A stretch of 24,000 nucleotides of DNA from an uncultured bacterium (GTDB lineage Bacteria; Patescibacteriota; Minisyncoccia; Minisyncoccales; Minisyncoccaceae). Where the stretch lies: positions 19,456 through 43,455 of the forward strand of contig CAWDHP010000003.1 of the NCBI GenBank assembly GCA_963802195.1, read 5' to 3'. A program made the translations under genes and the position numbers. Each line of letters starts with the position of its first letter. Within the stretch, counting starts at the first letter, position 1. The notes beneath the pieces are model-generated. The model saw nothing but the letters and a program-made list of their open reading frames with translations. It made no database searches and was not told the origin of the DNA. Shown here in pieces: positions 2,704 to 12,908 of the stretch.

Positions 2704-3186
2704 TTATGGTTCCCAATATTCCCCGCTTCTTAATATTTTTCCTACTCCTATCTTACCATCAAATACAATAATTTCCACTCTTGCCTCTCGAAGCATCGCA
2801 AAAGCAAAGTCTATATCCTCTTGCCAGTGTCCATTCCTATCTAAAGCTTGTTTGTGGATCACTAGCTTTTTAATGCCAGCTTGAATTATAGCTTGAGCAC
2901 AATCACTACATGTTGCCCAGGGACAAACCATAGTGAGTCCTTCTGTTTTTATTCCTAATCTAGCGGCAGAGTAAATAACATTCCTTTCGGCATGAACGCT
3001 GTATTTGTATCTTATGGCTTTATCGTTTTGCCTTTCTTCTGTTTCAGCTATCCCGTTAGGAAAATTATTAGTCTCTGAAAGAATAATATTTTGATTATCG
3101 TCAATTAAAATAGCCGCATTCTGCGTTGATATATTAGTGCTTTTTTGAGCTTTTTCGTATGCTATTTTAAGGAGTTGTTGCCACAT
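2704..3186 (-). CDS. CMP/dCMP deaminase (deoxycytidylate deaminase-like)
   Basis: HAERNVIY (H-A-E) and CPWATCSDCAQAI (PCxxC) zinc-ligand motifs of the cytidine/deoxycytidylate deaminase fold. Confidence 0.8.
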   Translation of the reverse strand: MWQQLLKIAYEKAQKSTNISTQNAAILIDDNQNIILSETNNFPNGIAETEERQNDKAIRYKYSVHAERNVIYSAARLGIKTEGLTMVCPWATCSDCAQAIIQAGIKKLVIHKQALDRNGHWQEDIDFAFAMLREARVEIIVFDGKIGVGKILRSGEYWEP

Positions 3187-3380
3187 GCTGTGATGGTCAG
3201 TCTGGAACCCCTAACCTTCAATCAGTGTAAGAGTTATTTGACTATTTAATATTGATTAATTTGAAGGGTCTCAGTCGGGATAAAATGAGACAAATGAGAC
3301 AGTATAAAAGGATATGTACCCTGTCTCGTGGACACTGTCTCGTTTTTTATAACTTACCATAATTTTTATCTTTGTGAAAG

Positions 3381-3418
3381 AATTGTAAGTAAAAAAAGAA
3401 GGAGATTTTTGATATCGA
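3381..3418 (-). terminator. intrinsic terminator after the radical SAM gene
   Basis: On the minus strand, AGGAGAT (3418-3412) pairs with ATCTCCT (3396-3390) and is followed by a TTCTTTTTTT tract. The same ATCTCCTTCTTTTTT tail recurs at 8769-8784. Confidence 0.6.
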
Positions 3419-3454
3419 AGTATCTCCTATGATTAACTTCGGAAGCTTAAAGCT

Positions 3455-4702
3455 TCAACCCTTAACTGTTTCCCACCCTTTTGGCAATGGCCAGAAAAGA
3501 TGGTTTTTCGCGTAAAATTTGAGATCGGCTAACGTGGGCGCGATGCGGTGGTTATTGAATAAGACCGATGTCTCAAATTCACAACCAACAGTTATTGCGA
3601 CATCTTCAGTCGCGACCTCATTTGGAGGTAACTCGACGAGGTACCCTTCCTCGGTCACGCGAATAGACAAAGGATGGTATCCCAACCATGTGAGGTATTT
3701 TTCAATCTCATCTGGATTAACTTTCCTCCACTGGCCGAGTTCTCCTGAGCGGGATAGGTTGTTGCGATTATATGCAATCGGCATACTGAACTCATCCCGA
3801 TACAATGTACCTGTATGCCGATGAACCCTAACATCGTACATGATTGAGGCACAGAGGACCGCCTTTTCAGCTTTTTCAGACAGCCAGTTTTTCATTTTGT
3901 AATACTGGTGTCCGCCCGGACTTGATTCTTCGTTTTGGTTGCCGTCGAGGAATCCTGTCTCGCGAAGCTTGTCGTTTTCGGGAGTAATGCCGAGATTTCC
4001 GATACTGCAACCACGATAGGTCAGAAATCTGATTCCCATCATTGCCAAATCGAAAATCGTTTCGACGCCCTTCATAACGTTATTATCGTTAAGTGGTCCA
4101 AGCATGACGGAAATCCGTCTTGGGGAAATTCCGGCATCGAGAAGCATCTGAAGACCCTCCAGTTGCTGTGGCGACTTAATCGGACTTCCCCTGAACTCTG
4201 GGCTGTCAGGCGTGATTGTAGTGCTAAACACTACACGAGGGTCATCCCCCCACGCTTCAAGCTGTTTTTGCCCGAATGGGGCACGGTGCAGAACGAAGAC
4301 TGGACTTTTGTGCGGAAATATCCGTAAAAATTCCGTAATTTCATTTACCTGCATGCTTCCGTCAGACCGAGCAGCCAGCATGATAATATCTCGGCCAGCC
4401 TTGAATAATTTGGACTGTTCAAGGAATCGTACCGCCTGTCTTGGCGTTGCAATCTTGCGGAGGCCTTTTCTGCCCTTCCCGATAGTATCAACAGAATTGT
4501 TGATCCATCGGTAATAACAGAAGTCGCACCCGATGGTGCATCCCATGATAAGGTCTCCATCCCAAGTGTACCGCCGTTTATAAAACGGAGCGGGGCAGAC
4601 TTGGCATTCTCCTTTCCATTCTGGCGGGGTGCCACCTAATAAAAGGTGTTCTCCGTTGACTATATCTGCCGCCCTTGCGGCTGAGAAATCTTCAAAAGAC
4701 AT
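3455..4702 (-). CDS. radical SAM enzyme, SplB/COG1533-like (spore-photoproduct-lyase-like family)
   Basis: MGCTIGCDFCYYRW contains CxxxCxxC in the GCxxGCxxCYxR context typical of SplB-like radical SAM proteins. AGGAGG lies 6 nt upstream of the ATG. The start abuts the upstream stop (TAAATG). Confidence 0.75.
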   Translation of the reverse strand: MSFEDFSAARAADIVNGEHLLLGGTPPEWKGECQVCPAPFYKRRYTWDGDLIMGCTIGCDFCYYRWINNSVDTIGKGRKGLRKIATPRQAVRFLEQSKLFKAGRDIIMLAARSDGSMQVNEITEFLRIFPHKSPVFVLHRAPFGQKQLEAWGDDPRVVFSTTITPDSPEFRGSPIKSPQQLEGLQMLLDAGISPRRISVMLGPLNDNNVMKGVETIFDLAMMGIRFLTYRGCSIGNLGITPENDKLRETGFLDGNQNEESSPGGHQYYKMKNWLSEKAEKAVLCASIMYDVRVHRHTGTLYRDEFSMPIAYNRNNLSRSGELGQWRKVNPDEIEKYLTWLGYHPLSIRVTEEGYLVELPPNEVATEDVAITVGCEFETSVLFNNHRIAPTLADLKFYAKNHLFWPLPKGWETVKG

Positions 4703-6457
4703 TTATACCTCCTGTCCCAAAATTGGGGCAATTTCTTTTTTCAATTTACGACCAAGACTAATGGTCTTCTTTGGAGTGATTCCGAACGTACGCATATAGG
4801 TCAAGCGACTAAGGCGTTCATCGGAATTATCCTTGCGGCCGTCTTTGCCGTAAAGAGCAGAAAGTCCATCATCAAGCATTTGGGCTGCGACACCATCCTG
4901 GTACGCAGCTTTGCAAATACTTTCAGAGCATCCTAATGCTTCAGCAATCATCAGCCGGAAAGAAGCCTCCTTCATCACTACCTTGCCCCAGAGTTCTGTC
5001 TGAGTCAGCTCGGTACTGAATTTAGGATTTTCTATTTCTACTTCAAGTCGAGCTGCGAGAATTACTTCACGAACGCGCTCCTCGAAAGTGGTTATACCGA
5101 GTTCGACGGCGATATTTCTTGCTCTTCCAAGGTCGTATGCCGCCTGCTCAATAGTTTGCCATACTCCGTTGATTACCCAGAACGCTGGCGCATAGTCACG
5201 GACTTCGTCCTCATCAATGAGGTCGTCCATGATTTTGAATGCCTTGCGCAGGTGTTCAACAAGCTGGCAGATTTCCTCAACATCCTTTTCGTTCCGTTTT
5301 CCAAGAACAGAGAGTTTTCTCACTTTCTTGGCGTAACTTCCGGAAGTCGGGACATCTATCCATGGCCGCGGGTTTTCAAGACTCTTTTGGTAGAAAGAGT
5401 CGATTGCCCCGACTTTTTCTAACCAATCCATTCTATTAACCTCCACTTTTGTAGCTCCGCGATTCTTTGCCACTTGCACTGCAGCTTGCTGCACAAGCTT
5501 CTTCGTGGCCTCGACTGATTTAGAGGCGAATATCCACGATAATACTTCGTGCATTCCGGAAATTAACCTGTCAGGAAGATTGATGTGGCAAGTATTACCT
5601 TCGTATTTTACCGAACACCCTGTGGTCTTGACGGTAAAGTCAGCAAAGCTCACCACATCAAGGGCGCCGATTTTGCGTAAGAGCTCCAGACGTTCCGAAT
5701 CAACAGAATCGTCAAAGTCCCCGCGCCTCTCAGCTTCCCTCTGTCGTTCATCTTCATCTCTCCTAACAGAGATAACGATTACTGGCCGTTGTAAAGCATA
5801 GCTCGCGTATATGATTTGTTCGCGAGACTTGATGCCATCAACAACCATGAACGGCGAATCGTCATTTACCGAAGAAACAAACCTGCGGGCGACAACAATT
5901 TTGTCTTTCGCCTCAACCTCTTCGGTGAAGCACTGGACATTGGTCCAATTCATTTCGCCATAACGGGATTCTATCTCCTGCTTTACATAGTCTCCCCATT
6001 TGTAGACGGAGAATCCGTCCATCTGGGAAAAAATGTTCCGCAGAAGTGTCTTCCCTGATGCGGGCAGTCCGACCAGTGCAATCATGTACTTATCAATGTG
6101 ATAAGTATCTTGCTCTGATACACTTTCTTTCGGCACAATCCCCTCTTTCTTCAAGAGGTAATTTTGATGTCGATACGCCAGCAATGTTTTTTCGTTGCCG
6201 ACATACTTTACCGGCCCCTTAATACCTAAACTCCTTAACGATTTCTCGACATGGAGCTGGGTTAAGGCCGTGGTCAAATTCCGGTCAAAGACAAGAATCT
6301 CTCCGTACTTCTTTTTTTGTGGAAAGTTCCACCAGGTTACTTCCCTCTGATCCATGCGAGAGAAGTCTGCAATTGCAACCTCCCATTCGGGAGAAAGAAT
6401 ATTGCAATTCAATAACTCCACGCCTGACTTGGCGATTAAAACCGCAAGGGTTTTCAT
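4703..6457 (-). CDS. fusion protein: unknown N-domain, P-loop nucleotide kinase (adenylate/dephospho-CoA-kinase-like) and a divergent polyprenyl-synthase-like C-domain
   Basis: Walker A in IALVGLPASGKT. The block VVDGIKSREQ...RRDEDERQREAERRGDFDD resembles small archaeal-type nucleotide kinases. The C-terminal MDDLIDEDEVRDYAPAFW (DDxxDxxxxR...P) and GVAAQMLDDGLSALYGKDGRKDNSDE resemble the two Asp-rich motifs of trans-prenyl synthases, with the second degenerate. I prefer the ATG at 6457 (GAGG 7 nt upstream) over the TTG at 6499 used by the ORF track. Confidence 0.6.
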   Translation of the reverse strand: MKTLAVLIAKSGVELLNCNILSPEWEVAIADFSRMDQREVTWWNFPQKKKYGEILVFDRNLTTALTQLHVEKSLRSLGIKGPVKYVGNEKTLLAYRHQNYLLKKEGIVPKESVSEQDTYHIDKYMIALVGLPASGKTLLRNIFSQMDGFSVYKWGDYVKQEIESRYGEMNWTNVQCFTEEVEAKDKIVVARRFVSSVNDDSPFMVVDGIKSREQIIYASYALQRPVIVISVRRDEDERQREAERRGDFDDSVDSERLELLRKIGALDVVSFADFTVKTTGCSVKYEGNTCHINLPDRLISGMHEVLSWIFASKSVEATKKLVQQAAVQVAKNRGATKVEVNRMDWLEKVGAIDSFYQKSLENPRPWIDVPTSGSYAKKVRKLSVLGKRNEKDVEEICQLVEHLRKAFKIMDDLIDEDEVRDYAPAFWVINGVWQTIEQAAYDLGRARNIAVELGITTFEERVREVILAARLEVEIENPKFSTELTQTELWGKVVMKEASFRLMIAEALGCSESICKAAYQDGVAAQMLDDGLSALYGKDGRKDNSDERLSRLTYMRTFGITPKKTISLGRKLKKEIAPILGQEV

Positions 6458-7148
6458 TCTAAACCTCGTAATCGTAAGTTGCCATGTTTCAGGCAACAAA
6501 CTAAAGATGTAAATCTCCAGATTGTTACCTGAAACTCTACCTATTTAATTTTCAAACAGCATCCTCCTGCTTCTCTCGGCTCCAATCTCTCCATTGGAAG
6601 CCGAGAGTATAGCAAGGAGGTTTCTGGAAACGAAGCGGGTTAAACTTCCTTTCCAGCCAATCTCCCTACTAGAAGACGGCAAACGATATTAGCCAGTTGA
6701 TAATCTTTTCATTTATACTCTCTCCAGTATGATGACGATTACCTAACATTCTTGCTAAAAGCTAATATCGGACAGGCAGTAATTGGTGTTTTACTGCTTT
6801 AGGACCTTAAGTCTATCACCATAATAGACTTTCGTTCCTTTGATTTTTAACAAAGAGCTATTCTTCTCGAAATTCTTCCGAGAAGATTTTTAAAGATTTT
6901 ATCTTTAACATATCTTTCCGCAAAAAAACGGCTGAGAAATCTCTTCAAAGGACAGACTCAAGATAGAATCCTTCCTTAAAAGAGATCTCCCAGCCGTTCG
7001 AATAAACAACTAGTATCTATTACTCCATTCGGAATGCAGACAGACCTCAGCCTGATTCCTTATCCCTTTCGGGAAAGAAGTAACGGGTCCATTATTTAAC
7101 CTCGCGGACGAGCGAAGAACTAACATCTAATTTAATGAACTCACTTAC
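6458..7148 (-). ncRNA. large structured leader RNA, copy A (paralogue of 10445-11180)
   Basis: About 690 nt between the promoter at 7155-7183 and the kinase-fusion ATG, with no conserved ORF. Hairpins are dense, including a long hairpin at 6929-6996 followed by U7. The core 6614-6846 aligns with 10575-10785 and shows compensatory stem changes. The 5' end is inferred from the promoter only. Confidence 0.5.
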
Positions 7149-7154
7149 ACGATA

Positions 7155-7183
7155 ACTATATACTACTATCTGCTTCTTGTCAA
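7155..7183 (-). promoter_or_regulatory. sigma70-type promoter driving leader A and the kinase-radical SAM operon
   Basis: Minus strand reads TTGACA (7183-7178), a 17-nt spacer, then TATAGT (7160-7155). Confidence 0.65.
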
Positions 7184-7190
7184 CCCCCAA

Positions 7191-7199
7191 TTATCCACA
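7191..7199 (+). promoter_or_regulatory. perfect DnaA-box 9-mer TTATCCACA, 7 nt upstream of the -35 element
   Basis: Exact match to the consensus TTATCCACA. The same 9-mer occurs at the same spacing at 11223-11231 and 11338-11346. Confidence 0.45.
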
Positions 7200-7200
7200 T

Positions 7201-7253
7201 CCTGCTTTCGTCCTTTTGGACTCATCAGCTCGGACACACATCCGAGGAGCAAG
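7201..7253 (-). ncRNA. type III hammerhead ribozyme (HHR-1)
   Basis: Minus strand reads CUUGC-UC/CUCGGA-UGUGUG-UCCGAG-CUGAUGA-GUCC-AAAA-GGAC-GAAA-GCAGG. The full CUGAUGA...GAAA core is present. Stems I and II are closed and stem III is open (CUUGC/GCAGG). Predicted cleavage is after C7247. Confidence 0.85.
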
Positions 7254-7317
7254 TGTAATTTATTTTTTTAAAAAATTACTAAAAAATTAACCCTACTATA
7301 CTGCCCAAGTAATTGGC

Positions 7318-8523
7318 TTAAACATTTTTTACTGTAAATCCAGCATTTTTGAATCCCTCAGCCAAGGACGTTGGTTCATCCTTAATCTGAATATCGTTAA
7401 GACCGAAGATCTTTTCAATCTCGACCTTGGATGGAGTAATGGGTGTGATTCCGTCCCATGGCTCCGTGCGAATGCCGTTGGCTACCCACCGTACATAGTG
7501 GTGGATTCCTCCGGCATTAGCGAGTACATAGGATGTTATTTCTCCATCCTTGTACTCTATCCACGCAGAGTGCCAATCGGGCGCTTCAACGATAGCTAGA
7601 ATACTCTCGCTGTTGAATGGTCTCTCGCAGGATTCCTTTATTCGGGTGATACCCGATTCAGAAATTTTCTCGAACCGGTAGCGCTTGCCACCACCCGGAC
7701 CGATGCAGAGAGATATTAATGCTTTCGTGCCAGGAATCAGTGTGCCAGCTTGCACACTGCTGACGCCACCGATCTTATCGCCCATGACGACGGGAATGGC
7801 AATGCCCCAGTTTTTTACGGTTTGCTCTATCGGTTGCCACTGTGTGAAGTGGTTAACCAGAACATTCATTTCGGGGCTGATTGCTTCCTCAAGTTCTTCT
7901 GCTAGTTTAATCGCGGACTGAACGTCCTCGTGAAGCTCTCCAGTAAACTGCTTTACAACTTCCGTTACCTCGGGATTATCATCAGTGGCGATTGTTTGGC
8001 AGAGTTCTTCGCGGGTCATTGCGACTGCGTTGAAACTCCTAGTCACAATGAGGTAGCGCTGACCGTAGCCTTTGTATGATCCCCCGCAGATGTTCACGAT
8101 GAACACCGATGGAGATTCAATATGCCACAGCTCATCAGTTCCGCCACCAATTCTACCGGCATCGCCGAAGGCATAAGAACCAGTGACTAACAGTTTAGCT
8201 TCGCCACCCTTGTGGACGACATTACCCTCTGTCCCACGGGTGTACGTTCCATACGTGTTTATTCGTATGAGTACACCGCGTTGGTTGGGGTTGCTTTTGG
8301 TCAATATGCAATGCTTCCTTTCCTCCCCAAAGAGGAAATATCCGACATCATCGGGTCCGGACGGTTGTTGTCCGGAACGATTAGAAATTCGGACTTCTTC
8401 AAGCCACCGGCCTCGGCCAGCCTCTCCCAAAGAGAACGGAATCTCCTGGGTCCTTCCGTGCATGTCAATTATTTTCATTCCTTTCACTCCATTCTTGCCC
8501 CTAAAGCGTATCTTCGTGGGCAT
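7318..8523 (-). CDS. hypothetical protein (386-401 aa), no recognisable family
   Basis: Long intact ORF in GC-rich cargo. The start is either ATG 8523 (no SD) or ATG 8478 (GGAGTGAAAGGA upstream). Gly-rich loops are present (GDAGRIGGGTD, CGGSYKGYG, GPGGGKRY). Confidence 0.6.
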   Translation of the reverse strand: MPTKIRFRGKNGVKGMKIIDMHGRTQEIPFSLGEAGRGRWLEEVRISNRSGQQPSGPDDVGYFLFGEERKHCILTKSNPNQRGVLIRINTYGTYTRGTEGNVVHKGGEAKLLVTGSYAFGDAGRIGGGTDELWHIESPSVFIVNICGGSYKGYGQRYLIVTRSFNAVAMTREELCQTIATDDNPEVTEVVKQFTGELHEDVQSAIKLAEELEEAISPEMNVLVNHFTQWQPIEQTVKNWGIAIPVVMGDKIGGVSSVQAGTLIPGTKALISLCIGPGGGKRYRFEKISESGITRIKESCERPFNSESILAIVEAPDWHSAWIEYKDGEITSYVLANAGGIHHYVRWVANGIRTEPWDGITPITPSKVEIEKIFGLNDIQIKDEPTSLAEGFKNAGFTVKNV

Positions 8524-8768
8524 GAATTATGTTTGCTCATTAAGAGCGTACAATTTTAAAATATTATTTAAGACTGTGCGCTCTCAACAAACTCTATTTA
8601 AAGAACTATTATCAATTAAATCAGCAGTGAACCGTAAAGCAATTAGCGAGGGGTTTGAATGTATTATATTCTGGAGAGAGATTAGAATATATCCAATACC
8701 TCTCCTGCTTTACGGATCGCTACTGATTGTTTCTCAATTCTGAATCCACTTTTATTAAAATGAACTCG

Positions 8769-8816
8769 GAAAAAAGAAGGAGATAATGTTTAAACATTTA
8801 ACGGGTCTCCATCTCC
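8769..8816 (-). terminator. intrinsic terminator after the P-loop NTPase gene
   Basis: On the minus strand, GGAGAT (8816-8811) pairs with ATCTCC (8784-8779). The inner palindrome AATGTTTAAACATT is followed by TTCTTTTTTC. The 5' arm overlaps the stop codon. Confidence 0.5.
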
Positions 8817-9403
8817 GTTATCAGCCAATCTGCAAACTGACTAATAATACCCTGATAGGGATCCTTTGGACCGTCTCGGTCCAAATTACAGATAATCCCT
8901 CGAATGGGTTCGGCAGAAAAATCCGCCGAAGATCCTACATTGTTATCAAGCGTCCCATCCGCCCGCTTGATAAGCCGAGACTCAAATAATGCGAGAGTCT
9001 CACACCCTTCTTCTTTGGCAAAATTCTGCCAAAGCTCATTCTCTTCTTCTTTCGAAGAAAGAAGAATAAGGTGCGTTGACCGCTTGAGAATCTCGGCATT
9101 CTCAGCAGTCCGTCTTCCCCCAAGATCTAGGAGGACCAAGGGAAACGATTTTCCCAAGTTCTCAATGGACTTCAGAGTGAAACCCATGAATTCTTGAGAA
9201 AATGCTCCTTTCCTCCGAATTTCAGAGACAAGGCGCGGGTCAGTCTCTGCTGACCACATACCTTCTCCATCGGGACATGCCCTTTGGAGAAAGACTCTCG
9301 TTGCCTTCCTTGCCAAAAGCTGACGATATAGCTCGGCAAGGAAGACTGACTTCCCTGAATGTGGAGGCCCTCCCACGGCCACCACCATTTTTTTAGTGGC
9401 CAT
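8798..9403 (-). CDS. P-loop NTPase of the type found fused to Csx3 (Csx3-associated AAA/kinase-like)
   Basis: Walker A in VAVGGPPHSGKS and Walker B in LVLLDLGG. AAGGAGG SD. The gene lies directly downstream of the Csx3 gene. The link to Csx3-AAA fusions is recalled from the literature, not searched. Confidence 0.65.
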   Translation of the reverse strand: MATKKMVVAVGGPPHSGKSVFLAELYRQLLARKATRVFLQRACPDGEGMWSAETDPRLVSEIRRKGAFSQEFMGFTLKSIENLGKSFPLVLLDLGGRRTAENAEILKRSTHLILLSSKEEENELWQNFAKEEGCETLALFESRLIKRADGTLDNNVGSSADFSAEPIRGIICNLDRDGPKDPYQGIISQFADWLITEMETR

Positions 9404-9462
9404 AGTAGCCTCCTTTAGTGCTTTTTATACTTTTGCACAAAAAGTTTTTTCATTCCCTGATT

Positions 9463-9765
9463 TTACTCAGGGAACGGTATTACATTTCCGACCTGCTGGT
9501 CGGGAGAGTGGGTGGCAACGACCACTGCGCCAAGGCGCGGATCGCGAACTGCCAACCACGGTGTGGCATGGGCAGCATGCACTAACATGCTGTATAGCCA
9601 TACCGGACCCCGTCCGTCAAGGACGATCGGGGTTTCTCCACCGAGCTCACCGAGCTCAGTGACCGCTTCCTGAGATTCCTGGGGAGTTGTTACTCCGCCC
9701 GGAATCTCGAATCCTACCACCCGGATGCCGTTAGCATCACGGGTGGAAAATACTGGTTTCGACAT
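9463..9765 (-). CDS. csx3: Csx3 (Crn3) family protein, distant-CARF ring-nuclease fold
   Basis: LDGRGPVWLYSMLVHAAHATPWLAVRDPRLGAVVVATHSP closely matches the block I recall from A. fulgidus Csx3 (SGRGPIWLHCFLAHKYHHTPFVAVYDPRLGAVVVQSHS). I prefer ATG 9765 (GGGAGG 9 nt upstream) over the TTG at 9792. Confidence 0.7.
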   Translation of the reverse strand: MSKPVFSTRDANGIRVVGFEIPGGVTTPQESQEAVTELGELGGETPIVLDGRGPVWLYSMLVHAAHATPWLAVRDPRLGAVVVATHSPDQQVGNVIPFPE

Positions 9766-9954
9766 TTTCCATACCTCCCGTTTCACCTTCAACGGGGACT
9801 TTGCTCTGCATCATCAAAAGGTGACTTTGATGATGACTCCCTTCATGGGAAGCGAGCTGACTACTTTTATAAATAATCAATTCGCTTTCCATAAAGCAAG
9901 AGTTAAATATTCAAACCTATTTTCCTTTTAATGAGCAACTTATATTTTACAATT

Positions 9955-10007
9955 CTGCTTTTCGTCCTTTTGGACTCATCAGCTCGGATACACATCCGAG
10001 AAAGCAA
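9955..10007 (-). ncRNA. type III hammerhead ribozyme (HHR-2)
   Basis: Minus strand reads UUGCU-UU/CUCGGA-UGUGUA-UCCGAG-CUGAUGA-GUCC-AAAA-GGAC-GAAA-AGCAG. The core is identical to HHR-1. Stem III is UUGCU/AGCAG. Predicted cleavage is after U10001. Confidence 0.85.
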
Positions 10008-10060
10008 TTTGAAGAGGAAGTTTTATATAGCGAGCCCTCTTCGTACCCGCTTTACCCTGG

Positions 10061-10444
10061 TTACCTTCCAGTCGGGAAAATAACCATTTTCCAGGGATCC
10101 TCCCTGTCTGAAACATAGACAGGACGGAATCCCTTCTCCTCTACGACCTTCTGAAAGGCCGGGAGGAGAAACCCTGCCTCTGGCGGGAAGTCCATTAGGA
10201 CCTCCCTCGTTGCCTCATCGGCAAAGAGGAAGGCCTCCTTCATGGCCCTTCCCAGCCAATCGCCGAAACGCTCTGCGCGCTCGACGATTTGTTGCCCTTC
10301 CACCACGTCCATGTGGCGGAAGAGAATCATTTCCTCCAGTTCCACCCGCAGGTGGACTGGAACTTCAGTCAGCGAAAATCGCTGGTGAAGTTTCTCCGCT
10401 CCCTCACGGGGGAGCGGGCTTACCCTTAAGATACTCTTCTGCAT
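10061..10444 (-). CDS. hypothetical protein (127 aa)
   Basis: GC-rich intact ORF. I prefer ATG 10444 (AAGGGGAG about 10 nt upstream) over the TTG at 10495. No recognisable motif. Confidence 0.5.
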   Translation of the reverse strand: MQKSILRVSPLPREGAEKLHQRFSLTEVPVHLRVELEEMILFRHMDVVEGQQIVERAERFGDWLGRAMKEAFLFADEATREVLMDFPPEAGFLLPAFQKVVEEKGFRPVYVSDREDPWKMVIFPTGR

Positions 10445-11180
10445 AATAATGACTCCCCTTCTTTTTCGGTAGAAGTAAACCGGTGCTTTTTCCAAGCAAC
10501 AATCTAGAGATATAAGTCTACAGATTGTTACTTAGAATGATTTTAAAATGAACCACTGACACTCCCTATCTCGTAAGGAGGTTTCTGGAAACGAAGTGGG
10601 TTAGGCCTCTTTTCCAGCCGATCTCCTTACTAGAAGAACGGTATACGATTTTTTAACCTTAGGCCATAACTCTCTCCAGACTTTCTTTGTCGCCTAAAAT
10701 TAATATATCGGACAGGCAAGCAATTGGTTTTTGCTGCTTTAGGACCTTGACCTATCACCATAATAGATCGCGTTCCTTTGATTTTGGTTTAAAGAACTAT
10801 ATCTTCTTTCTTGCGAAAGAAGGTGATGGATATGAGTCTTGTATTGTTTTAGCTCATTTCCATAACTTTCCTTCGTAATATATTGTAAAAGAGGGGGGAG
10901 ATTCAGAGTCCTAGGTGTAAACCCAAGGTTTAGGACGCTGTTCGGCAAGTCTCCCCGCTGCCGCTTCCGAATGGGTCTTCGGAAGAAAGTGGTAAAGATG
11001 ATACATATTCATCTCCACAACTTTCTTTCAAAAGAAAAAGGGGTAACAAATGTTGGGATACTGCATGAAAAGAGTACCTCAACACTTATTACCCCATAAC
11101 GGAATTAAAAGCGTTTATTGGCAATGCCTCTCTCCTTGCATTGACTTGGCTTATTTAATTTTTAATAACTTCATCCTAAC
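10445..11180 (-). ncRNA. large structured leader RNA, copy B (paralogue of 6458-7148)
   Basis: About 735 nt between the promoter at 11187-11215 and the ORF127 ATG. The core 10575-10785 is homologous to 6614-6846. Two long hairpins are followed by U-tracts (about 11036-11095 and 10895-10956). ORF-track ORFs in this region are not conserved in copy A. Confidence 0.5.
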
Positions 11181-11186
11181 AACTAT

Positions 11187-11215
11187 ACTATGACATACTA
11201 TCTATTTTCTGTCAA
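11187..11215 (-). promoter_or_regulatory. sigma70-type promoter P1 for leader B
   Basis: Minus strand reads TTGACA (11215-11210), a 17-nt spacer, then CATAGT (11192-11187). Confidence 0.55.
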
Positions 11216-11222
11216 GCTCCAG

Positions 11223-11231
11223 TTATCCACA
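11223..11231 (+). promoter_or_regulatory. perfect DnaA-box 9-mer TTATCCACA, 7 nt upstream of the P1 -35 element
   Basis: Exact 9-mer at the same spacing as at 7191-7199. Confidence 0.45.
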
Positions 11232-11301
11232 CCCTGATTTTTCTATGAATAACAAGGCTTTTCTTCTTTTCTGCCTCTCCTTTCTTTATCCTTACACCTA
11301 T

Positions 11302-11330
11302 ACCATAGCATAGTAGTATAATTATGTCAA
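11302..11330 (-). promoter_or_regulatory. sigma70-type promoter P2 (tandem with P1)
   Basis: Minus strand reads TTGACA (11330-11325), a 17-nt spacer, then TATGGT (11307-11302). Confidence 0.5.
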
Positions 11331-11337
11331 CACTCAG

Positions 11338-11346
11338 TTATCCACA
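11338..11346 (+). promoter_or_regulatory. perfect DnaA-box 9-mer TTATCCACA, 7 nt upstream of the P2 -35 element
   Basis: Exact 9-mer at the same spacing as the other two copies. Confidence 0.45.
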
Positions 11347-11451
11347 CCCTAGCTATCAAGTTTTTCAGTCTCCACTTTGTCTACATATGGGGTCTGGACT
11401 CCCTAGAGCTATTGCGTCATCCTTGTCCTTGAGATAATAAATAAAAACAAT

Positions 11452-12759
11452 ATGGAACGAATAATAAAAAGTATAAGTCAGTCCCCTATTCTTGATGCTC
11501 CAATCAAGTATTGTCTCTATGCTAGGAAATCGACTGAAGCGGAGGACAAGCAAGCTCTTTCAATAGAATCTCAAGTAAAGGAAATGTTATCTCTAGCCGA
11601 AAGAGACAACTTAGATATAGTTGAAATTAAAAGAGAATCGCATTCTTCAAAGGAAGTCGGACAAAGAGTAGTTTTCAACGAAATGATTAAAGAAATAAGA
11701 GAAGGAAAATATAATGGAATATTAACATGGGCGCCAGATAGGTTAAGCAGAAATGCTGGGGATCTAGGATCGATAGTAGATTTGATGGATCAGAAGCTTC
11801 TTATCGAAATAAGAACATACGGACAGAAGTTTACCAATAATCCAAATGAGAAGTTTCTTTTAATGATATTAGGCTCTCAAGCCAAACTAGAGAATGACAA
11901 TAAAGCAGTCAATGTTAAGCGAGGATTAAGGACTAGATGCGAAATGGGATTAAGACCAGGAGTTGCACCGACTGGCTATCTGAATGAAAAGCATGTTGAT
12001 AAGAAATGCCAATGCAGAATAGATTCTAAAAGAGCACCTATTATTAAACAGATGTTTGAAAAGGTGGCCAACGAGCAATGGAGCGGCAGGAAGATATTCC
12101 GATGGCTGATTGATATTGGATTCAAGACTAAAACCGGCAAGCCTTTAGTTCTTGCCAATATTTATCTCATCTTAAGAAATCCTTTTTATTATGGAGAATT
12201 TGAATACCCAATTAAAAGCGGTAATTGGTATATTGGTAAACATGTTCCGATTATAAATAAAGAGCTGTTTGATAAAGTGCAAATGACCCTCGGTGATAAT
12301 TTCATACCCAAAACAGAAAGCAAGGAATTCGCTTTTACCAAATTAATCAAATGCGGATATTGCGGATCAGGAATATCAGCTGATGAAAAGTTCAGAAAAT
12401 TAAAAAACGGCGGTACTAACCGTCATGTCTATTATTTTTGTACCAAGGCGAGAAATATTGATTGCAAAAATCAGCCGATAGATGAGGCAAACCTAATAAA
12501 CGAACTAGCAGAACTTGTAGACAAGATTGATTTAGATGAACTAGGGATAAGGGATAAAATTGAAAAAGAATTAATGAGATTTAATAAATTTAGAATCGGA
12601 GTGCTTGGGCATAAAAAAGAAGTAAGCAATTCAGATATTGATATCCGTAACTATGCTAAGTATTTATTAAAAGAAGGAACAATTACCGAAAAGCGAGAAC
12701 TCCTATCATTTTTAAAAAGTAAACTGGTATTAAAAGACAGAAAGATTATTCTTGGATAA
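11452..12759 (+). CDS. large serine recombinase (resolvase/invertase N-domain, recombinase domain and zinc ribbon)
   Basis: YCLYARKSTEAEDKQALSIESQ carries the catalytic Ser motif. Also present are GILTWAPDRLSRN and a C-terminal CGYCG...YYFC zinc-ribbon-like motif. The gene is AT-rich (line 12181-12240 has 17/60 G+C) and has no SD, so it is host-like, unlike the cargo. Confidence 0.85.
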   Translation: MERIIKSISQSPILDAPIKYCLYARKSTEAEDKQALSIESQVKEMLSLAERDNLDIVEIKRESHSSKEVGQRVVFNEMIKEIREGKYNGILTWAPDRLSRNAGDLGSIVDLMDQKLLIEIRTYGQKFTNNPNEKFLLMILGSQAKLENDNKAVNVKRGLRTRCEMGLRPGVAPTGYLNEKHVDKKCQCRIDSKRAPIIKQMFEKVANEQWSGRKIFRWLIDIGFKTKTGKPLVLANIYLILRNPFYYGEFEYPIKSGNWYIGKHVPIINKELFDKVQMTLGDNFIPKTESKEFAFTKLIKCGYCGSGISADEKFRKLKNGGTNRHVYYFCTKARNIDCKNQPIDEANLINELAELVDKIDLDELGIRDKIEKELMRFNKFRIGVLGHKKEVSNSDIDIRNYAKYLLKEGTITEKRELLSFLKSKLVLKDRKIILG

Positions 12760-12799: not shown

Positions 12800-12837
12800 A
12801 TGTATGCATCTCAGTCACCTGACTTAGCATAAGACGG

Positions 12838-12908
12838 CTGCGGGACTAGGATTCGGACCTAGATTGGGCGAGTCAAAGTCGCCAGTCCTACCGTTAGACG
12901 ATCCCGCA
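12838..12908 (-). tRNA. tRNA-Gln (anticodon UUG)
   Basis: Manual cloverleaf: acceptor UGCGGGA/UCCCGCA with the U1-A72 pair typical of bacterial tRNA-Gln; D arm GUCU-AACGGUA-GGAC; anticodon arm GGCGA-CUUUGAC-UCGCC; T arm CUAGG-UCCGAAU-CCUAG; discriminator G. CCA is not encoded. The T-loop reads UCC instead of the usual UUC. Confidence 0.8.

Follow-up and report, generated by a model that had tools for sequence, protein, structure and literature searches.

What might a hammerhead ribozyme be doing between the protein-coding genes of a bacterium of the Candidate Phyla Radiation (CPR)? To our knowledge, what bacterial and phage hammerheads are for has been unsettled since their discovery in 2010-2011. 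The question is posed anew by a 24,000-nt stretch of contig CAWDHP010000003.1 (assembly GCA_963802195.1, positions 19,456 to 43,455; hereafter the window) from an uncultured member of the Minisyncoccaceae, phylum Patescibacteriota, which carries two type III hammerhead ribozymes, HHR-1 and HHR-2, on either side of a block of three genes, one of them for a Csx3 ring nuclease. Both belong to a subfamily that recurs in CPR genomes and in phages, and on balance we favor a role for them in the punctuation of transcripts at the boundaries of gene modules.

The minus-strand element at 7253..7201, HHR-1, reads 5'-CUUGCU C^ CUCGGA UGUGUG UCCGAG CUGAUGA GUCC AAAA GGAC GAAA GCAGG-3' (the caret marks the predicted cut) and is almost certainly a hammerhead ribozyme. 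The conserved catalytic core (C3 U4 G5 A6 N7 G8 A9; G12 A13 A14) is complete, and identical in HHR-2; the core-adjacent pairs C1.1-G2.1, G10.1-C11.1 and A15.1-U16.1 are intact, the topology is that of type III, and stem III consists of five pairs, one G-U among them, in addition to A15.1-U16.1. The cleavage-site rule N-U-H is satisfied by the triplet CUC in HHR-1 and by UUU in HHR-2. The minimum-free-energy fold of HHR-1 reproduces the hammerhead secondary structure exactly (-19.6 kcal/mol, z = -2.4). The Rfam model Hammerhead_3 (RF00008) aligns with it over model positions 1-54 at 34.1 bits (E = 7.4e-6 in a 300-nt search and 5.9e-4 in a search of the whole window with all Rfam families), and an independent model, R2, built from 72 related copies after exclusion of the window copies and of any copy sharing the window's stem I, scores it at 74.2 bits (E ~6e-22), the best non-hammerhead match in the window reaching 15.5 bits. 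Sequence, Rfam alignment, fold and R2 thus agree with the first-pass annotation of this DNA, which had called a canonical type III hammerhead here; every element that it listed is present where it placed it (Table 1). Its placing of the cut 71 nt past the stop codon of the open reading frame (ORF) for a 401-aa protein was likewise recovered (ORF end 7318, C17 at 7247).

That annotation had also named Hammerhead_3 as a check, and here the outcome was divided: the alignment runs from end to end but its score lies below the Rfam gathering score of 48.5 bits, which is why HHR-1 is absent from a default Rfam scan. The threshold is an operational annotation criterion and not a biochemical one, and the low scores of the window copies are due to their loop lengths and stem III sequence, the core not being at fault. 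In our judgement the element probably cleaves.

The second copy, which had not been taken into account in the first-pass annotation, any more than the conserved bracket described below, came to light through the recurrence of the 23-nt core and stem II of HHR-1 at 9982..9960. HHR-1 and HHR-2 share a 41-nt repeat that is 98% identical, and HHR-2 lies 2754 nt upstream of HHR-1 on the same strand (distance between cleavage sites). Position 17 is C in HHR-1 and U in HHR-2, and stem III of HHR-2 has an extra U on its 5' strand and an extra A on its 3' strand, which together add an A-U pair. The Rfam model misaligns HHR-2 (21.3 bits). The window yielded no third hammerhead and, with the other ribozyme classes searched at E up to 1, no member of those classes either.

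Relatives were collected with the exact 23-mer from the window, so that identity of core and stem II among them is by construction; because the search pattern fixed these parts, stem II covariation is outside the reach of the data and the independent evidence comes from stems I and III, loop 1 and position 17. The 23-mer occurs in 36 viral contigs of IMG/VR and, among species-representative genomes, in at least 119 stretches. Among the matches listed, 97 of 119 fall in CPR bacteria, 11 in other phyla and 11 in unnamed lineages, a split that is not corrected for how the collection is composed by phylum. A search with a 29-mer covering the window's stem I strand as well matched 8 metagenome contigs. 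Nearly all members are of type III, with a 6-bp stem I of free sequence, a hexaloop U-G-N-G-U-R and a stem III of 4-6 bp.

Comparison of the 72 copies used for R2 bears out the fold. Pairing reaches 99.5% in stem I, where each of the six pairs covaries, and 85.9% in stem III, where five of six do; when the partners were moved by 1-3 columns as a slid-register control, pairing fell to 33-43%. A separate set of 34 sequences gave the same picture of covariation. Triplets and loops were counted by fixed-geometry parsing and, among the matches listed, position 17 is C in 101 copies, U in 22, A in 13 and never G, and 135 of 136 copies have U at position 16.1. The CPR copies listed have the triplet CUC in 25 of 99 cases and UUU in 9 of 99, and their two commonest forms of loop 1 are UGUGUA (29/99) and UGUGUG (24/99); phage copies favor a GUC triplet and a UGAGUG loop. 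Conservation of loop 1 suggests a putative contact between loops 1 and 2. Some relatives exceed the Rfam cut-off (54.0, 50.3 and 49.7 bits in L127, L170 and L087; loci of the comparison are given as L numbers), and L043 and L173 hold near-identical ribozyme copies. On such comparative evidence, a core without variation, a cleavage site kept strictly to NUH and abundant covariation show that both the structure and the cleavage site are under selection, and the subfamily, defined by a 6-bp stem I, a UGNGUR loop, GUCC-AAAA-GGAC and an open stem III of 4-6 bp, is by its sequence signature widespread in CPR genomes and phages.

These counts bear directly on whether the window copies are decayed, that is, whether they keep the consensus but have lost useful cleavage, transcript ends being set in some other way. 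We regard this as improbable: every core position is intact, and the non-GUC triplets CUC and UUU, which might be taken as marks of decay, are ordinary among the CPR copies listed, in which the loops UGUGUG and UGUGUA are also the commonest. The scores of both copies below the Rfam cut-off, an alternative fold of HHR-2 and the putative nature of the tertiary contact between loops 1 and 2 would fit inactivity, but stem III has been preserved through a two-sided insertion between HHR-1 and HHR-2, and near-identical copies are kept in L043 and L173.

Two variations on the subfamily were seen along the way. A Paceibacteria metagenome-assembled genome (MAG) has three type III hammerheads within ~1 kb (L087:4637-5690; Rfam 38.5, 49.7 and 38.8 bits), which would excise RNA pieces of ~440 and ~560 nt. 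A Saccharibacteria subgroup (L056, L079, L089, L093, L105, L107, L116, L122, L128, L130, L140, L151, L162 and L167) shares the motif (T)CTGCTTGTCA, located ~10 nt 5' of stem III, and a stem III of the form UUCGCU/GCGAA; the reverse complement of the motif begins ATGACAAGCAGA and may overlap the start of a divergent gene.

In the window, GC content is 45-48% across ~3200-11400 (~8 kb) and ~32% outside, and every ORF of this island lies, with both ribozymes, on the minus strand (Table 1). The GC step, the serine recombinase and tRNA-Gln genes at the edge and the variable neighbourhoods of the 401-aa family lead us to conclude that the ribozymes sit on acquired DNA. No convincing terminator was found between the island's genes and ribozymes, no CRISPR array or other cas genes were detected in the window, and searches with Pfam, PADLOC and NCBIfam gave neither a reverse transcriptase nor a replicase for the island. 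A Csx3 ring nuclease carried by a mobile island could counter type III CRISPR signalling. The 401-aa family comprises 37 members, all hypothetical proteins, the named ones from Patescibacteria; the AlphaFold model is confident (predicted local distance difference test score, pLDDT, 88.5) and shows two beta-rich domains with a helical segment between them, and a Foldseek comparison with the PDB returned no match (best E = 0.019, TM ~0.1). The stop and start codons of the 598-aa and 415-aa ORFs adjoin, and a second contig carries the pair together with the 401-aa gene.

Table 1. Hammerhead ribozymes, associated sequence elements and genes in the window (positions count from its first nucleotide)
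Feature	Position	Strand	Basis or remark
HHR-1, type III hammerhead ribozyme	7201..7253	minus	Sequence, Rfam Hammerhead_3, minimum-free-energy fold, independent model R2
HHR-1 stem III	7253-7248 / 7206-7201	minus	Open; A15.1 = 7206
HHR-1 C17	7247	minus	Predicted cleavage between 7247 and 7246
HHR-1 stem I	7246-7241 / 7234-7229	minus	6 bp; loop 1 UGUGUG 7240-7235
HHR-1 core CUGAUGA	7228-7222	minus	Sequence
HHR-1 stem II GUCC-AAAA-GGAC	7221-7218 / 7213-7210	minus	4 bp, loop 2 AAAA
HHR-1 GAAA	7209-7206	minus	Sequence
HHR-2, second hammerhead copy	9955..10007	minus	Repeat search, R2 75.3 bits
HHR-2 stem III	10007-10002 / 9960-9955	minus	U17 = 10001, predicted cleavage between 10001 and 10000
HHR-2 stem I	10000-9983	minus	Hexaloop UGUGUA
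HHR-2 core; stem II; GAAA	9982-9976; 9975-9964; 9963-9960	minus	Sequence
Hairpin GAAGAGGG...CCUCUUC	10011..10042	minus	Between 144-aa ORF stop (10061) and HHR-2
boxA-like motif UUGCUCAUUAAA	9927..9938	minus	17 nt past HHR-2 stem III; conserved in L131
Long hairpin	9838..9899 (approximate)	minus	3' of boxA-like motif, leader of Csx3 block
Promoter-like module	7155..7199	minus	Directly 3' of HHR-1
DnaA-box sequence TGTGGATAA, perfect	7199..7191	minus	Upstream of -35
-35 TTGACA; -10 TATAGT	7183..7178; 7160..7155	minus	17-nt spacer
boxA-like GUUCAUUAAA	7131..7140	minus	~15 nt past -10 box, start of promoter-derived transcript
144-aa ORF, unknown protein	Stop codon at 10061	minus	ORF list
Csx3/Crn3 ring nuclease, 109 aa	9792..9463	minus	TIGR02579, 81.9 bits
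Csx3-associated AAA protein, 201 aa	9403..8798	minus	Pfam, PADLOC, NCBIfam
401-aa protein of unknown function	8523..7318	minus	ORF list, protein searches
Bracketed block Csx3 + AAA + 401-aa	7318..9792	minus	Between HHR-2 and HHR-1
598-aa AAA-kinase-like protein	6499..4703	minus	Weak AAA_18 and polyprenyl-synthase matches
415-aa protein	4702..3455	minus	Weak radical-SAM match
Large serine recombinase gene	11452-12759	plus	Island edge
tRNA-Gln	12836-12908	minus	Island edge

The bracket is conserved in one relative. L043, the closest relative and 82% identical by its 401-aa gene, is a 2703-nt contig that starts inside one hammerhead and ends inside another, the two flanking AAA-Csx3-387aa in the same bracket as in the window. 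Hammerhead cleavage leaves ends that RtcB joins, and two same-orientation copies around a block whose bracket is kept in L043 are what one would look for if the 2754-nt Csx3-AAA-401aa RNA were released and its ends joined into a circle like those of retrozymes and viroid-like agents, whether through reversal of ribozyme cleavage or through an RtcB-type ligase. We consider this very improbable. L043 begins with an HHR-2-type 3' strand, GAAA-AGCAG, and ends with a differing 5' strand, CCUACUC, which cannot pair with the start AGCAG (A15.2 would stand opposite C16.2); since the stem III strands at the two ends come from two different copies, L043 was rejected as a circular molecule and is a linear block. 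In the window, pairing of the excised RNA ends would need a bulged A in the core, the island has neither a reverse transcriptase nor a replicase, and phage copies are mostly single. Perreault et al., who raised the possibility of circularisation, sought circular or spliced products and found none (PMC3088659).

The first-pass annotation had tied the ribozyme to the 401-aa ORF, and this did not hold. At the loci of homologs with 49-75% identity no hammerhead was found by three methods, and the 75% relatives diverge directly past the stop codon; a tight link was given up, as among 13 homolog loci only that of the 82% relative carries the ribozyme. Another relationship emerged from L131, which matches the region downstream of HHR-2 over 145 nt at 82% identity, from the 3' strand of stem III onward, while its stem I, its 5' strand and all sequence upstream are unrelated to the window. 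Homology thus breaks inside the ribozyme, which therefore sits at a junction of modules that assort independently. In L043, L066, L170 and L136 a homolog of the AAA gene lies close to the ribozyme, and four loci have a serine recombinase near a copy.

Such a junction would also be expected if the ribozyme were a selfish repeat or cassette boundary that spreads with a small mobile unit and marks points of exchange, its cleavage being incidental to the host genes. Single genomes do hold many copies, as on four contigs of one Saccharibacteria MAG or as three within 1 kb in L087, and the break in L131, the nearby recombinases and the existence of 401-aa relatives both with and without ribozyme all agree with such spread. 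Against it, the invariant core, strict NUH site and covariation speak for selection on RNA fold and cleavage site, and the ordered neighbours (start codon, promoter, boxA-like motif) favor a role in expression. We think it unlikely as the explanation of the ribozymes, although it is compatible with transcript punctuation and does not exclude it.

As the first-pass annotation had noted, HHR-1 directly adjoins a module made of a DnaA-box sequence and a promoter-like site; its TTGACA-17-TATAGT begins 18 nt past stem III, matches 11 of 12 consensus positions and is the best promoter-like site in 3000-11600. Three copies of the module lie on the minus strand (7155-7199, 11187-11231 and 11302-11346), each with a perfect DnaA-box sequence (TTATCCACA on the plus strand) ~8 nt before TTGACA-17-TATAGT, CATAGT or TATGGT and then a leader of ~650 nt. 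Among the CPR genome copies listed, 11 of 99 have a TTGAC(A/T) box no more than 45 nt past the ribozyme, where ~2 are expected, and several of these have a -10 box at 17 nt; no such box follows any of 30 viral copies. A conserved stem-loop of ~65 nt is found in both long leaders (6671..6610 and 10632..10571, minus strand) and in a ribozyme-bearing locus (L175:2990-3059). In it an AAGGAG resembling a Shine-Dalgarno sequence pairs with CUCCUU, and two compensatory changes occur across the three copies.

HHR-2 is followed by a different leader, in which a boxA-like motif precedes a long hairpin. The folding energy of the 90 nt that follow this motif is -30.5 kcal/mol, compared with -14.2 kcal/mol for shuffled sequences; in CPR copies the corresponding 90 nt average -25.1 against -13.2 kcal/mol for shuffles, the hairpin arrangement being present in ~12 of 16 motif-bearing copies. 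The pattern T[GT][CT]TC[TA]TT[TGA]A stands past the ribozyme at a fixed offset of 5-8 nt in 14 of 127 genome copies among the matches listed (0.004 expected per 60-nt window) and past none of 35 viral copies. The commonest form of the motif, TGTTCTTTGAAAA, matches the boxA of E. coli rrn operons, TGCTCTTTAACAA, which is located ~100 nt upstream of 16S and occurs 7 times per genome, at 10 of 13 positions. Many CPR copies (UGUUCUUUG/A) agree with a boxA sequence close to UGCUCUUUA that keeps G2, C5 and U6/C6; the window's UGCUCAUUA has A at position 6. Because of this variant, and because the loci are not rRNA operons, we call the motif boxA-like only. An rRNA gene was found neither at the 18 motif-bearing loci nor at any other retrieved locus, and the notion that ribozyme and motif together mark the leaders of rRNA operons was accordingly dropped. 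The relaxed form GYTCWTTDAA occurs four times in the window (10797..10788, 9936..9927, 8606..8597 and 7140..7131), always on the minus strand in non-coding DNA of the island; the count (4 against 2.2 expected) is not significant alone, but the placement, with one before each gene block, is suggestive.

In a Saccharibacteria locus (L050:2100-7300), five successive intergenic units each consist of TGTTCTTTGAAAA and a hairpin of 20-25 bp. A hammerhead precedes the motif in two of the five and a conserved 45-nt element ending GGTTCTGTAGAAA takes its place in the other three; both forms are also seen in L067. This alternation fits the ribozyme being one of two routes to the same 5' leader. Immediately before the likely start codon of Csx3 in the window, a further hairpin, CAUCAUCAAA-GUCACC-UUUUGAUGAUG (9835..9809, minus strand), is conserved in L131 (~4280-4250), there with a run of U behind it, and may act as an attenuator or a terminator.

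Taken together, these features make it, in our judgement, on balance probable that the ribozymes punctuate and insulate transcripts at module boundaries by cutting them during transcription. Transcription of the island, started at the repeated promoter modules, would yield long minus-strand RNAs, and each ribozyme would fold on leaving RNA polymerase and cut itself 3' of position 17, splitting the transcript into [leader + 144-aa ORF], [Csx3, AAA, 401-aa] and [promoter + leader + 598-aa, 415-aa ORFs]. Upstream pieces would end in a 2',3'-cyclic phosphate shortly past a stop codon, and downstream pieces would start with a 5'-OH and a compact ribozyme body. The HHR-2 cut would give the Csx3 block a standard leader with a boxA-like motif and long hairpin, and in its effect would resemble a promoter; the HHR-1 cut would end the Csx3 block and strip upstream RNA from read-through before the next promoter, so that the downstream unit would be decoupled. 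What the data display directly are the motif, its family, the covariation, the paired copies and the recurring neighbours; cleavage in vivo, co-transcription through both sites and any consequence for RNA stability or expression are inferred. A role of HHR-1 in defining the mRNA 3' end and insulating the operon downstream, put forward in the first-pass annotation, is consistent with genes on one strand that lack a convincing terminator, with the excess of -35 boxes past CPR copies (11/99 against ~2) and with the earlier proposal of transcript processing by multiple hammerheads that flank prophage gene blocks (Perreault et al. 2011; PMC3088659).

Several observations weigh against transcript punctuation. 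Both copies score under the Rfam gathering threshold. The triplet of HHR-2 is UUU and its lowest-energy fold shifts stem III by one register and pairs U17, which could reduce its activity. Upstream secondary structure, which might protect a new 3' end, is of little help: the hairpin before HHR-2 is weak (-9.4 kcal/mol against -7.5 for shuffles), the sequence upstream of HHR-1 folds no better than shuffles, and in CPR copies generally the upstream hairpin is not specific (-10.1 kcal/mol against -9.3 for the segment 60 nt farther upstream). The window's boxA-like motif carries A at position 6, a critical site of lambda boxA at which transversions abolish function (PMC3177189). Finally, a promoter stands between HHR-1 and the next genes, and most downstream mRNA may therefore be without HHR-1.

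A broader version of transcript punctuation would make the CPR subfamily a general mark that can replace a promoter: by cutting just before a boxA-like motif and hairpin, or before a promoter, it would give every cassette the same leader regardless of what precedes it, allow an antitermination-type complex to be loaded and mark the points at which cassettes are swapped from genome to genome. We put this forward tentatively, as an idea about which we remain doubtful.

The settings of other copies differ between CPR bacteria and phages. CPR neighbours are mixed, and include metabolic genes that start 0-30 nt from the ribozyme (UPRTase-CMP kinase, adenylosuccinate synthetase and a serine hydroxymethyltransferase-like gene). 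Phage copies, mostly single, lie between co-directional ORFs, ~20-35 nt past a stop codon and ~20 nt before the next start. A GC-rich hairpin lies before them (-14.6 kcal/mol; shuffles give -7.3 and the sequence downstream -2.2); a protective upstream hairpin was nonetheless rejected as a general feature, since it holds in viral copies, is unspecific in CPR and is weak in the window. An association with the major capsid gene was also set aside, the genes next to phage copies being those of an unannotated ~300-aa family, ArdC-like, GGCT and DUF932 proteins, of which the last three are of early or host-takeover type. A recurrent phage protein of ~290-345 aa is encoded directly upstream of the ribozyme in L002, L003, L013-L016, L018 and L024 (ORF end ~25-35 nt before it) and directly downstream in L006 (ORF start 26 nt past it); it carries the motifs FTIGFEVEK, CGYEAVTHVLPL and SPS..CGGH and had no match in PHROGs or Pfam.

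Neither type III hammerheads nor sets of several hammerheads around genes of bacterial mobile elements are new in themselves. With type III members of RF00008 (clan CL00010) the window copies share the core C3-A9 and G12-A14, the pairs A15.1-U16.1 and G10.1-C11.1, the NUH site, an open stem III and capped stems I and II. The Rfam model, however, was shaped by other members, plant viroid and satellite sequences among them, whereas in the subfamily a hexaloop closes the 6-bp stem I and loop 2 is AAAA. The closest counterparts in setting are the hammerheads in prophages and near integrases of Perreault et al. 2011, who demonstrated cleavage in vitro for prophage examples (PMC3088659); there again a mobile element with a recombinase nearby has several same-strand ribozymes flanking a short block of variable genes, anti-restriction genes among them. 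That paper reports the first natural type II hammerheads (PMC3088659); the window copies differ in being of type III, in their CPR host, in having Csx3 within the bracket and in their link with a promoter and with a boxA-like motif and hairpin. None of these features was found described in the searchable literature, the coverage of which is incomplete.

Likeness in working rather than in family links the window copies to RiboJ, the engineered insulator of Lou et al. 2012, in which the tobacco ringspot virus satellite (sTRSV) hammerhead and a hairpin reportedly stand between promoter and gene. In each case a type III hammerhead upstream of a gene would trim 5' sequence to leave a constant, structured message with a 5'-OH. 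RiboJ sits after a promoter, whereas the window element is natural and lies between cistrons or before a promoter, sometimes with a boxA-like motif following. The order of motif and hairpin is that of lambda nut, among the boxA/boxB sites of rrn leaders and lambda nut, but none of the loci retrieved is an rRNA operon and binding of NusB/NusE is here putative. We know of no boxA site that has a ribozyme before it.

The census and the recurring neighbours suggest that the subfamily is concentrated in CPR bacteria and has fixed downstream partners there, neither of which we found described in the searchable literature, again with incomplete coverage. The present locus is a compact, testable case, with two ribozymes around a defined three-gene block that includes Csx3, one of them by a promoter and the other before a boxA-like leader. 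Were the ribozymes inactive or without effect, it would be merely one further annotated hammerhead. If the concentration in CPR bacteria and the fixed partners hold, bacteria with reduced genomes would have gained a simple means, at the level of RNA, of building and insulating expression units, and the subfamily would be a source of natural insulator parts for synthetic biology.

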